5,037 nucleotides of DNA from the IMG/VR virus record IMGVR_UViG_2548877009_000019. One strand, given 5' to 3'. A program made the position numbers and the translations under genes. The notes under the pieces were generated by a model. The model saw only the letters and a list, made by a program, of their open reading frames with translations. It was not told the DNA's origin and ran no database searches. This document shows positions 2,698 through 3,911 of the stretch, in pieces. Positions within the stretch are counted from its first letter, which is position 1. Each line of letters opens with the position of its first letter. The DNA comes from a virus (Duplodnaviria; Heunggongvirae; Uroviricota; Caudoviricetes).

Positions 2698-2925
2698 TCA
2701 TCCTGGCGGGCGATTCTTACGGGACTTTAGCCGCCGTGGGCAGCTTGCTAAAAATGCCTCCAACGCGAATAGTCCAGGTTTCATTTCTATCGGTATTAGT
2801 TGGATATTCAGAGGATTAGCCAGTTCGGCTTCAAGGCGAGCACAGGTTTCTAACTGCCTTTGCCGAATGATTTCATCTTCTTGCGTCTGCGTGTCTTGTA
2901 TTGGTGATAGTGTGTTGTTGGTCAT
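2698..2925 (-). CDS. Hypothetical small protein (75 aa, starts MTN)
   Basis: Minus-strand ORF immediately downstream of the 2983-3162 gene, separated from it by the 45-bp repeat copy B. Followed on the minus strand by the 2531-2577 terminator. Paralogous start to the 2037-2240 ORF. Weak Shine-Dalgarno. Confidence 0.35.
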   Translation of the reverse strand: MTNNTLSPIQDTQTQEDEIIRQRQLETCARLEAELANPLNIQLIPIEMKPGLFALEAFLASCPRRLKSRKNRPPG

Positions 2926-2933
2926 GGTACTGC

Positions 2934-2979
2934 CCTGTAAAGCAATGCGCCGTAGTACCTCACGCCACGGCGCTGATGG
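2934..2979. repeat. 45-bp repeat, copy B, in the 57-bp spacer between the 2983-3162 and 2698-2925 minus-strand genes
   Basis: Matches copy A (2249-2293) with 2 mismatches. Forms GCGCCG-N15-CGGCGC on the minus strand. Confidence 0.8.
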
Positions 2980-2982
2980 TGA

Positions 2983-3162
2983 TTATTCTGATTCTTTGGT
3001 CTTGCGGCGCTGGCGGCGTTTGATTTCGCCGCGCATGGCTGCGTTTATAAACTGCCCCGTGCTTTCACCTTCTTCTTTCACGTTCTCCATGCCTTCAATA
3101 ATTTCATGGGCAATACGTGCAGTTACAGATTGTGATTTTGCATTCTTTGGACCCGTTGCCAT
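2983..3162 (-). CDS. Small basic protein (59 aa, MATGPKNAKSQSVTARIAHEIIEGMENVKEEGESTGQFINAAMRGEIKRRQRRKTKESE); candidate regulator
   Basis: Start placed at the internal ATG (plus 3160-3162) because it has a strong Shine-Dalgarno GAGGGG with 6-nt spacer; the longer track ORF to 3201 has none. Divergent from the plus-strand operon across an operator-like region. Lys/Arg-rich C-terminal tail. Regulatory role is inference. Confidence 0.55.
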   Translation of the reverse strand: MATGPKNAKSQSVTARIAHEIIEGMENVKEEGESTGQFINAAMRGEIKRRQRRKTKESE

Positions 3163-3182
3163 GTTTAACCCCTCATGTTTTT

Positions 3183-3264
3183 GGTGTAAGACAATATACA
3201 CGAAAAAAAAATATTTTGAAGGGTTGACGTGTAAGACACCGTTATTTTACATTGTGTCTTACAC
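3183..3264. promoter_or_regulatory. Divergent promoter/operator region with GTGT-N3-ACAC palindromic motifs
   Basis: GTGTAAGACA (3184-3193), GTGTAAGACAC (3229-3239) and its exact inverted copy GTGTCTTACAC (3254-3264). A -35-like TTGACG at 3224-3229 overlaps the second motif; the -10 is poor (TTACAT/TACATT). Confidence 0.5.
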
Positions 3265-3290
3265 CTTGTTAATGCAAGGTACAGAAAAGA

Positions 3291-3356
3291 CGAAACCCCG
3301 CAGTGCTGGAACACATACGGGCTTCTAACCAACAACGTAAACTAGGAGCCGTTATG
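3291..3356 (+). repeat. Leader module copy 2: hairpin AACCCCG / CGGGCTT (17-nt loop), CTAACCAA, Shine-Dalgarno AGGAG, ATG (3354)
   Basis: About 90% identical to copy 1 over roughly 40 bp. Outer stem positions differ from copy 1 in a way that keeps pairing (A-U pairs replacing G-C pairs) with one internal mismatch. Confidence 0.7.
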
Positions 3357-3537
3357 GTTGCTGTAAATCATATACCACACCTTGTACACACACAAACTGC
3401 CTTTGTGTGGCGTTTTCTGGCACTGAATATCGGAGAAAAAAACCAGTTGATCGCCAGTGTCGAAAATAGCTATGATTCCCGCGCACCTCATAAAACGGGT
3501 GCCGGGATTGGCGTCCTGGGCAAAACTGAAGCGCATA
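3354..3537 (+). other. P3-paralogous short ORF (MVAVNHIPHLVHTQTAFVWRF...) with no in-frame stop before the 3538-3560 terminator; leader peptide or decayed paralog
   Basis: Good Shine-Dalgarno (AGGAG). N-terminal roughly 30 codons are paralogous to the 3723-3911 ORF with several synonymous differences. The frame runs without a stop through the terminator to 3911, so the 202-aa track ORF is unlikely to be one real protein. Confidence 0.3.
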
Positions 3538-3560
3538 ACACGCGCCCCGCGTGTTTTTTT
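3538..3560 (+). terminator. Strong Rho-independent terminator (ACACGCG-CCC-CGCGTGT followed by a T-run)
   Basis: Perfect 7-bp GC-rich stem (3538-3544 and 3548-3554), 3-nt loop, T-tract through 3560. Plus-strand specific. Lies inside the 3303-3911 track ORF and upstream of the small-ORF operon. Confidence 0.75.
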
Positions 3561-3657
3561 GTGCCGCATAGTCACACCTTATCAATGGTGGGCTGTACGG
3601 GGGCGGAGCAATCCGCGCCGGTTTCTTCAGTGTCCGGTTACGCCAACCCTGTACAGT

Positions 3658-3725
3658 CCGCCACCAGCGAAATTGGCGTTTCCGGTGGCGGTTATCTTAA
3701 CCACACTGAGGAGGCTGCCAACATG
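3658..3725 (+). repeat. Leader module copy 3: hairpin CCGCCACC / GGTGGCGG (18-nt loop), TCTTAACCAC, Shine-Dalgarno GAGGAGG, ATG (3723)
   Basis: Perfect 8-bp stem at 3658-3665 and 3684-3691. Same architecture and spacing as copies 1 and 2 but with a completely different stem sequence. Confidence 0.6.
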
Positions 3726-3911
3726 GCTACTATCCCTACCCTTGTACATTCTCAAACCGCCTTTCTCTGGCGCTTTATCATCTTTGGCGCGTCAGAACAT
3801 CAAATCATCCACGTAACCGCCTGGACGGAACGCGAAGCGCGTAGCCGTTGCCCGTCAGGTTGTGTTGCTGTATTTGCCGCCCGTATTCGTCAGGAGGTGC
3901 GCCATGATTAA
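3723..3911 (+). CDS. Hypothetical small protein (62 aa, MATIPTLVHSQTAFLWRF...); first gene of the small-ORF operon
   Basis: Strong Shine-Dalgarno GAGGAGG (3708-3714) with 8-nt spacer. Stop overlaps the next start (ATGATTAA). Paralogous N-terminus to the 3354 ORF with synonymous third-position differences. Confidence 0.6.
   Translation: MATIPTLVHSQTAFLWRFIIFGASEHQIIHVTAWTEREARSRCPSGCVAVFAARIRQEVRHD

Follow-up and report, generated by a model that had tools for sequence, protein, structure and literature searches.

The hairpin at positions 3537-3560 of the window (the whole 5,037-nt stretch of viral DNA that was analyzed) is a genuine transcription terminator, the counterpart of both the P4 t1 terminator and the IsrK terminator, and it almost certainly belongs, as an isrK/seqA-t1-type terminator, to an RNA immunity module of the P4 type. 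By its gene set, the element is a capsid-forming PICI, of which the window covers the regulatory end. There the module leads the replication operon, and it would operate by the P4-type mechanism as a whole (also described as P1 immI / Gifsy-1 IsrK-type), a reading that we consider probable and in which every functional step is taken over by homology from P4, P1, and Gifsy-1. The positions of the module and of its neighbors are collected in Table 1.

Table 1. Positions of the RNA module, its promoters, and the overlapping genes in the window.
Feature	Positions	Strand	Sequence or basis
Upstream promoter-like site	3224-3253	+	TTGACG-18-TACATT; 9/12 consensus matches only
Long ORF, 185 aa	3354-3911	+	Shine-Dalgarno AGGAG at 3344-3348; open frame 3303-3911
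Immunity cassette, approximate extent	3427-3799	+	Alignment with sister island L125
Internal sigma-70 promoter (predicted)	3447-3476	+	TTGATC-18-TATGAT, then 6 nt to G3483
isrK-family / seqA-type leader RNA	3483-3560	+	Rfam RF01394
Candidate anti-terminator	3531-3545	+	GCGC 3531-3534 with GCGC 3542-3545
Intrinsic terminator	3537-3560	+	AACACGCG-CCC-CGCGUGUU; T-run 3554-3560
C4/CI-type antisense RNA	3581-3668	+	Rfam RF01695
C4 a' loop	3622-3633	+	UUUCUUCAGUGU
C4 b' segment	3641-3646	+	CGCCAA
b2 target	3673-3678	+	UUGGCG
a2 target	3703-3714	+	ACACUGAGGAGG; includes icd-like Shine-Dalgarno GAGGAGG
Icd/Kil-like gene, 62 aa	3723-3911	+	NCBIfam NF033153 phage_ICD_like, 57 bits; PGAP (L001)

Conservation of the terminator hairpin

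In the pattern scan, the terminator has an 8-bp stem (3537-3544 paired with 3548-3555) with five G-C pairs and a 3-nt loop, and TTTTTGTGCC lies directly 3' of the stem at 3537-3555; seven T residues occupy 3554-3560. The inverted repeat itself, AACACGCG-CCC-CGCGTGTT, is G+C-rich, and its final two T residues begin the T7 run. This site ranks first among all terminator-like sites in the window, and the local fold of the region (-16.1 kcal/mol, z = -2.65) was equalled by 2 of 200 shuffled sequences. Terminator-like sites are not enriched as a class in the window, however (9, vs. 6.0 ± 2.1 in the shuffles); the pattern by itself is therefore weak, and the case for this hairpin rests on homology.

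In the Rfam isrK match (E = 5e-13), this hairpin forms the terminal helix. An exact scan of IMG/VR with a 16-mer from the leader returned 120 stretches, which together with earlier loci gave 116 modules (70 unique), and a hairpin followed by five to eight T residues is found at the same position in all 116, in 25 distinct terminator variants. Three stem sequences occur among these variants (ACACGCG, GACGC, and AACCGC); because the stem sequences differ and the hairpin is nevertheless kept, the helix has been preserved by compensatory change. In a MAFFT alignment of 21 leader variants the terminator arms fell out of register between stem types, and each sequence was therefore folded singly. With 8 bp and -10.2 kcal/mol locally, the terminator of the window is stronger than the family norm of about -8 kcal/mol. 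The earlier note had described a textbook Rho-independent terminator at 3538-3560, and this is borne out by the pattern scan, by the isrK terminal helix, and by the complete set of homologs; the distances that it gave are also right (184 nt after the ATG at 3354 and 163 nt before the ATG at 3723).

An IsrK-type leader RNA and its promoters

The isrK match (RF01394) covers 3483-3559 and model positions 1-77, scoring 66.0 bits (cut-off 50, E = 5.4e-13). The leader has two 5' hairpins, followed by a single-stranded spacer and then the terminator. Two short segments of this leader are complementary to the downstream C4 RNA: b1 (UUGGCG, 3508-3513), within the loop of the second hairpin, and a1 (ACUGAAG, 3525-3531), in the single-stranded spacer, 5 nt before the terminator stem. 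Two other Rfam matches in the window fell under their cut-offs, namely a c4-a1b1 match overlapping the isrK match (21 bits, cut-off 46.7) and a BSnc120 match at 1381-1462 (27 bits, cut-off 114).

In five unrelated upstream contexts, and in P4, a -35/-10 pair precedes isrK position 1 at constant spacing. The predicted internal promoter in the window is the counterpart of P4 PLE and P1 P51b, and a transcription start near 3483 is predicted to be set by this conserved element. Given that start, termination is predicted to yield mainly an RNA of about 77 nt, in place of the transcript of roughly 300 nt that had been expected from the layout. Downstream of this promoter, the pattern scan found no promoter-like site on the + strand at 3477-3722, including the interval between the terminator and C4, in keeping with the earlier report of no sigma70 promoter at 3560-3723. 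Since there is no promoter-like site between the terminator and either C4 or the icd-like gene, both need read-through. The proposal that the operon is expressed by regulated read-through was thus broadly right, in that no promoter of its own is predicted and homologous systems depend on read-through, but it had missed the internal promoter.

Farther upstream, the promoter-like site at 3224-3253 lies in a divergent region and is a putative second promoter. Operator-like repeats surround it (GTGTAAGACA at 3184-3193 and 3229-3238, with the inverted form TGTCTTACAC at 3255-3264), and the sister island L125 has an identical region, placed directly 5' of its icd-like gene. Transcripts starting there would include the ribosome-binding site of the long ORF.

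A C4 antisense RNA and its two target sites

The stretch of about 160 nt between the terminator and the operon is not empty and holds a C4 RNA gene as well as an a2/b2 target over the ribosome-binding site. The C4 match (RF01695) scores 77.6 bits against a cut-off of 45 (model positions 1-87, E = 1.5e-14); it begins 21 nt after the isrK match, and the two RNAs are co-oriented. A CCA follows the C4 closing stem in both the fold and the covariance match, and the mature RNA is predicted to span approximately 3586-3666 with this CCA at its 3' end, the processing sites being placed by analogy with P1 and P4, whose C4-type RNAs are cut from a longer transcript with RNase P acting at the 5' end.

The a' loop of C4 can form a 12-bp helix with a2 (-17.2 kcal/mol) and a 7-bp helix with a1 (-9.5 kcal/mol), the latter being the weakest a1 helix of the family (mean 9.1 bp), while the b' segment is complementary to the identical b1 and b2 sites. 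Across 15 C4 loop classes, a', a1, and a2 covary three ways: cognate helices have contiguous mean lengths of 9.1 bp (a1) and 10.5 bp (a2), and non-cognate helices have means of 4.7 and 6.4 bp, respectively. The b sites covary as well, with CGCCAA/UUGGCG pairs, GGCCAA/UUGGCC in the P1-like phage, and GGCUAA/UUAGCC in two further loci (L126 and L145). When the read-through RNA (3483-3730) was folded, the leader b1/a1 was paired in cis to C4 (z = -4.5).

Exact scans of IMG/VR with the a' hairpin and the a2 site found no helper phage sharing this C4 specificity, and true matches occurred only in the same icd-like satellite module; three extra a2 matches (L141, L142, and L144) lie inside unrelated coding sequence and are due to chance. 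Among 5426 E. coli genomes, this specificity is present in 148, with a median of one copy. The scans of IMG/VR and of the E. coli genomes accordingly give no support to cross-talk with a helper phage that shares the specificity.

A long reading frame through the RNA genes

The long ORF starts upstream of the internal promoter and continues in frame through that promoter, the leader, the terminator (which encodes Cys-Phe-Phe-Val), C4, and the a2/b2 sites, and then through the icd-like gene, which opens the rightward operon and lies nested at the 3' end of the ORF. The frame from 3354 indeed has no stop before the terminator, as was noted previously. Two readings had been offered for it, a non-stop leader peptide or an untranslated RNA; the frame in fact crosses both the terminator and C4 and continues as the icd-like gene, so that there is no non-stop leader peptide, nor is the stretch simply untranslated, and the ORF is instead the counterpart of P4 eta. 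Its product matches P4 Eta (BLASTP, E = 1e-7), and the frame is the same as that of P4 eta.

This frame is open in 61 of the 61 unique C4-bearing modules that are not P1-like and in 2/7 of the unique P1-like modules, whose copies lose it because the length of the T-run varies from 6 to 8. Nucleotide conservation of the RNA genes could in part account for the open frame. In two modules (L038 and L114) the frame extends very far upstream; these extensions are low-complexity translations antisense to other genes, and for that reason were not taken as real N-termini.

Protein families also cover the region: phrog_29966 spans residues 1-184 of the long ORF, and Pfam Phage_ASH matches residues 40-122, corresponding to nt 3471-3719, a stretch that PGAP labels as an 'ash family protein' pseudogene. 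Both the Phage_ASH match and the 'ash family protein' call coincide exactly with the two RNA genes. Following the icd-like gene, the annotation contains small hypothetical genes, DUF4222, and a RepA-family helicase, and the antirepressor gene (ant) is absent from this position.

The host element and the immunity cassette

E. coli JNE120442 matches the window at 99.9% identity, and in that genome the window forms the left end of an island of approximately 15 kb between roxA and phoQ. The island encodes int, alpA, a RepA-family helicase, SSB, PerC, TerS, and TerL, along with the major capsid protein, prohead protease, portal, head-tail connectors, and HNH; the AlpA protein of the element matches Pfam PF05930. 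Such a gene set is that of a capsid-forming PICI of the EcCIEDL933 type (preprint 10.1101/2022.09.08.507074), and the likeness extends to the int-alpA-replication arrangement, to the capsid, portal, protease, and terminase genes, and to the length of about 15 kb. In the literature on PICIs and capsid-forming PICIs that was searched, AlpA is the sole regulator discussed, and the words antisense and Icd are absent.

In sister islands of this PICI the cassette is entirely absent. Compared with one of these (L125), the window carries a net insertion of 360 bp (120 codons), in frame, within the 5' part of the icd-like gene. The flanks in L125, which is without the RNA module, are 98.6% identical, and a 65-aa Icd-like gene begins there at the place where the ATG at 3354 stands. 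Carried on the cassette are the promoter, leader, terminator, C4, and a2/b2, together with the 5' end of a second allele of icd. Another island, located at tRNA-Pro, has this cassette with 100% identity over 291 nt, immediately 3' of alpA.

Related modules are common beyond these islands. The 260 nt at 3483-3743 match about 320 phage records at 67-75% identity, including the 'immunity region' of SfV, many Stx phages, and a P1-like Punavirus. SfV has both an isrK match (64.2 bits) and a C4 match above their cut-offs and in the same order, and the P1-like phage has a C4 match above the cut-off and an isrK match of 49.5 bits, just under 50. One or more such modules occur in approximately 3,000 of 5,426 complete E. 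coli genomes (median two).

Comparison with P4, P1, and Gifsy-1

The earlier note saw a parallel with P4 in principle, which holds, and added that the sequences were not recognizably P4, which does not: P4 matches both Rfam families in the same order, and the proteins are related, as given above. In the P4 genome (NC_001609), isrK is matched at 8692-8615 (60.8 bits) and C4 at 8507-8420 (74.9 bits), both above the cut-offs. A promoter (TTGCCT-18-TATAGT) stands directly upstream of the leader, and the P4 a1 site (UUCACAGG) lies 7 nt before a hairpin of GACGCG-CCA-CGCGUC-U7. The P4 long ORF (8812-8168) spans the promoter, leader, hairpin, and C4 and ends MATTLTPSHPE...; the C-terminus of Eta is Kil, with an NF033153 match of 73 bits. 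These P4 parts correspond to PLE, seqA, terminator t1, CI RNA, and the nested eta and kil genes; in the P4 immunity region, seqC stands between the CI RNA and kil. P4 also has timm, a Rho-dependent terminator. In P4, Kil is made upon occasional read-through, and Eta is translated solely from an upstream late promoter, this translation blocking termination (PMC10111431).

The window and P4 thus share the order of parts, with a promoter, an isrK-type RNA carrying b1 and a1, a hairpin and U-run 5-7 nt farther on, and a C4-type RNA, as well as a target over the Shine-Dalgarno sequence of a Kil/Icd-family gene of about 62-65 aa that ends an ORF of about 185-214 aa in the same frame. They differ in the gap between terminator and C4 (about 107 nt in P4, 21 nt in the window), in their loop specificities, and in the placement of the module, since eta follows directly after an alpA homolog whereas two leftward repressor-like modules intervene in the window. 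Furthermore, the host element of the window is a capsid-forming PICI by gene set, and not a P4-like satellite. Rfam C4 and isrK profiles have previously been found to match several Gram-negative PICIs (PMC10111431).

The P1/P7 immI operon (P51b - a1b1 - c4 - a2b2 - icd - ant) is similar in that C4 is flanked by a1/b1 and a2/b2, a2 lies over the icd Shine-Dalgarno sequence, and icd starts 55 nt after C4; additionally, the P1-like phage has an isrK-like leader with a terminator. There are also two differences, in that the window has no antirepressor gene after icd, whereas immI has ant in translational coupling to icd, and that the P1-like copies lose the long frame. Because ant does not follow the icd-like gene, the module is immI-like in its working and is not an immI operon.

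In Gifsy-1 of Salmonella, the isrK promoter drives anrP only via read-through of the IsrK terminator, and STnc1160 is processed out of the read-through transcript (PMC4825925). The window has the same isrK family, with its own promoter, a Rho-independent terminator that would be partly read through, a C4-like RNA, and cis pairing between leader and C4. This predicted cis fold corresponds to IsrK 'structure A', which was translationally silent in the Gifsy-1 study. The two differ in what follows: in Gifsy-1, orf45 inside the C4 region and then an antirepressor; in the window, replication genes preceded by the icd/kil-like gene. Only in Gifsy-1 has the short RNA been shown to activate expression.

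Proposed mechanism and alternative explanations

In the mechanism that we favor, the internal promoter would give rise to an untranslated leader that starts near 3483 and runs to the terminator, where most transcripts would end as the 77-nt IsrK-like RNA. The share that reads through would be processed to C4, which, acting on a2/b2, would stop translation of the icd-like gene and thereby shut operon expression. By pairing with b1/a1 of the nascent leader, C4 would also raise termination and so render the circuit self-limiting, and the short terminated RNA, which retains b1/a1, may titrate C4. Transcripts from the upstream promoter-like site would be translated from 3354, and their ribosomes would override both the terminator and C4, in the manner of P4 eta. 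Two points weigh against this reading. With a terminator that is stronger and an a1 helix that is weaker than usual in the family, termination in the window may depend little on C4 and be largely constitutive. In Gifsy-1, moreover, constitutive STnc1160 failed to lower the IsrK effect, contrary to a P4-style model (PMC4825925).

With regard to the effect of C4 on termination, Briani and colleagues are said to have found in 2000 that the P4 CI RNA increases termination at t1 in vitro, with t1 reportedly serving CI autoregulation. A candidate anti-terminator in the leader offers a way in which this may come about. It pairs the region of the last a1 base with the top of the terminator 5' arm and the first loop base, and in the nascent leader, before the 3' arm is made, this fold has a predicted energy of -5.7 kcal/mol. 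Nearly all variants, and P4 too, can form an equivalent helix from other base pairs (GGCG:CGCC, GAGC:GCUC, and UUGGUGC:GCGCCAA). Mean energies are -5.5 kcal/mol for cognate combinations and -4.5 kcal/mol for chimeras, a value as good as that observed being reached in 0.3% of permutations; with a helix of only 4 bp and modest statistics from related sequences, these figures are suggestive only. C4 bound at a1 would prevent the anti-terminator hairpin and hence favor the terminator, which makes a C4-blocked anti-terminator a likely, if hypothetical, route to raised termination.

A different role for the terminator, for which we see a limited chance, is that it mainly frees a stable 77-nt trans-acting RNA, an activator of the IsrK type, which would pair with C4, either free or as part of the read-through mRNA, and so open the ribosome-binding site and turn on the operon, as happens in Gifsy-1, with C4-enhanced attenuation playing no role. 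Such a role would fit the isrK family match, the retention of the C4-complementary b1/a1 on the short RNA, and the cis leader:C4 helix of the read-through RNA as the equivalent of the silent 'structure A', and it is backed by the Gifsy-1 experiments (PMC4825925). The gene content argues the other way: Gifsy-1 has orf45 within the C4 region and then an antirepressor, but no antirepressor is found in the window, where the first gene is icd/kil-like and a2 lies over its Shine-Dalgarno sequence, as in P1 and P4. An activator of this kind is compatible with the P4-type explanation and partly contained in it.

It is unlikely, in our estimation, that the terminator is simply constitutive, fixing the ratio of short RNA to C4 precursor and insulating the operon from the internal promoter, with all control exerted at translation, by C4 on a2/b2, and at the upstream promoter. 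The strong 8-bp hairpin with its T7 run and the weak 7-bp a1 complementarity speak for it, and the classical P1 immI model requires a2/b2 only. However, in each of the 15 classes a1 and the C4 loop covary, and a1 always lies 5-8 nt before the stem, in P4 as well; covariation at such a constant position argues that contact between C4 and a1 has been selected there.

Finally, it is highly improbable that the hairpin is incidental to a true protein gene of the 'Ash family' and has no role at the RNA level: the open 185-aa frame has a good Shine-Dalgarno sequence and is annotated by Phage_ASH, phrog_29966, and PGAP, but Phage_ASH coincides precisely with the stretch of the two RNA genes (nt 3471-3719), two covariance models give scores far over their cut-offs, the stems change by compensatory substitution, a conserved promoter lies inside the ORF, and IsrK and P4 CI are experimentally established RNAs (PMC4825925, PMC10111431).

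Implications for satellite immunity

The terminator, its neighbors, and the logic of regulated read-through are already known from P4, P1, and Gifsy-1, as are C4 and isrK homologs in PICIs (PMC10111431), and specialists in P1, P4, or small RNAs are not expected to find a surprise here. The assignment to a capsid-forming PICI, the in-frame presence or absence of the cassette, and the candidate anti-terminator go beyond the literature that was read. A capsid-forming PICI bears an RNA switch of the P4/P1 type ahead of its replication operon. There is also a value for annotation, in that the 'ash family protein' pseudogene and Phage_ASH match at this location coincide with two RNA genes, whose predicted transcripts are of 77 nt and about 80 nt.

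The islands that are 98-99% identical, with and without the 360-bp cassette, are a natural comparison for the contribution of the RNA layer to satellite control, and the alternative hairpin adjacent to a1 is a testable account of how CI/C4-type RNAs raise termination. More tentatively, and as a possibility that we hold to be open to considerable doubt, isrK, terminator, and C4 may together act as a portable 'immunity cartridge', kept in frame and passed between satellites by recombination within the conserved 5' end of icd/kil, in which C4 would flip the terminator through the anti-terminator. If this is true, insertion of the cartridge would give a PICI replication operon that had been simply transcribed a P4-type switch with two promoters, and the 15 or more loop specificities would represent mutually independent immunity groups of co-resident satellites and phages.

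Tandem Duplication of the Divergent Regulatory Unit

The divergent regulatory unit is present twice in the window, in tandem (copies 1 and 2), and each unit combines a short gene facing leftward (YlcI/YnfO- or Arc-like) with a promoter that reads rightward, a hairpin in the 5' UTR, a Shine-Dalgarno sequence, and an icd-like start. Two pairs of segments correspond between the copies: the first (2230-2304 and 2915-2989) has an 84% match, and the second pairs 2534-2586 with 3282-3332. In copy 1, the icd-like start is present only in truncated form (ATG at 2609, MAIKEHSLLFIHTQT...), and the transcript from its promoter would be antisense to a 75-aa ORF (2698-2925) and to the YlcI/YnfO gene (2983-3162).

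The 5' UTR hairpin, for which no match was found in Rfam, is conserved in both copies. That of copy 1 has a good predicted fold (z = -2.7). That of copy 2 has lost 1 nt (GGGC versus GGGGC) relative to L125, a sister island that lacks the leader-terminator-C4 cassette, and this deletion weakens it. The promoter-like site upstream of the cassette (3224-3253) has its -35 and -10 elements flanked by the GTGTAAGACA repeats, which resemble operators for the YlcI/YnfO-family protein encoded divergently at 2983-3162.

A separate hairpin between int and alpA, which probably serves either in termination or as a site for protein binding, underlies a match to the Rfam family BSnc120 that falls below threshold (27 bits versus a cut-off of 114).

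Repeats, hairpins, and promoter in the window
Feature	Position	Description
A+T-rich hairpin	1413-1447	Between int and alpA; perfect 11-bp, AAGGCATAAAA-N-TTTTATGCCTT
Duplicated unit, copy 1	2230-2660	
Copy 1 promoter	2471-2498	Rightward; perfect consensus, TTGACA-16-TATAAT
5' UTR hairpin, copy 1	2546-2578	CGCCCCGCAGUGAUGGGAACACAUACGGGGCG
Duplicated unit, copy 2	2915-3420	
5' UTR hairpin, copy 2	3297-3322	CGCCCCGCAGUGAUGGGAACACAUACGGGGCG
GTGTAAGACA	3184-3193, 3229-3238, 3255-3264	Third copy inverted

The Cassette and Its Variants in Other Loci

An identical cassette is carried by a different PICI, the tRNA-Pro island of E. coli E2865 (L146, 7859-9309), where it lies directly 3' of alpA. The genes there run alpA, icd-like fragment, ash, icd-like, an arrangement more similar to the orf88-eta layout of P4 than is that of the window. 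In one module class (L012 and L030), a 39-nt insertion separates the terminator from C4; here the downstream start codon is one base off the long frame that runs through the module (distance 281 versus 243), and the frame is nevertheless open for 670 nt. One viral contig (L057) has two "orphan" isrK-like leaders in tandem (8752-8830 and 8990-9070), each with the C4-complementary site a1 and a terminator and neither with C4 downstream; they might act as decoys that bind a C4 RNA from another locus.

In the window, a match to the Pfam "Ash protein family" (PF10554; 3471-3719) overlaps exactly with the isrK and C4 RNA genes, as does an "ash family protein" pseudogene annotated by PGAP. Rather than an independent protein domain, PF10554 may largely represent translated conserved RNA genes (or the middle region of P4 Eta).
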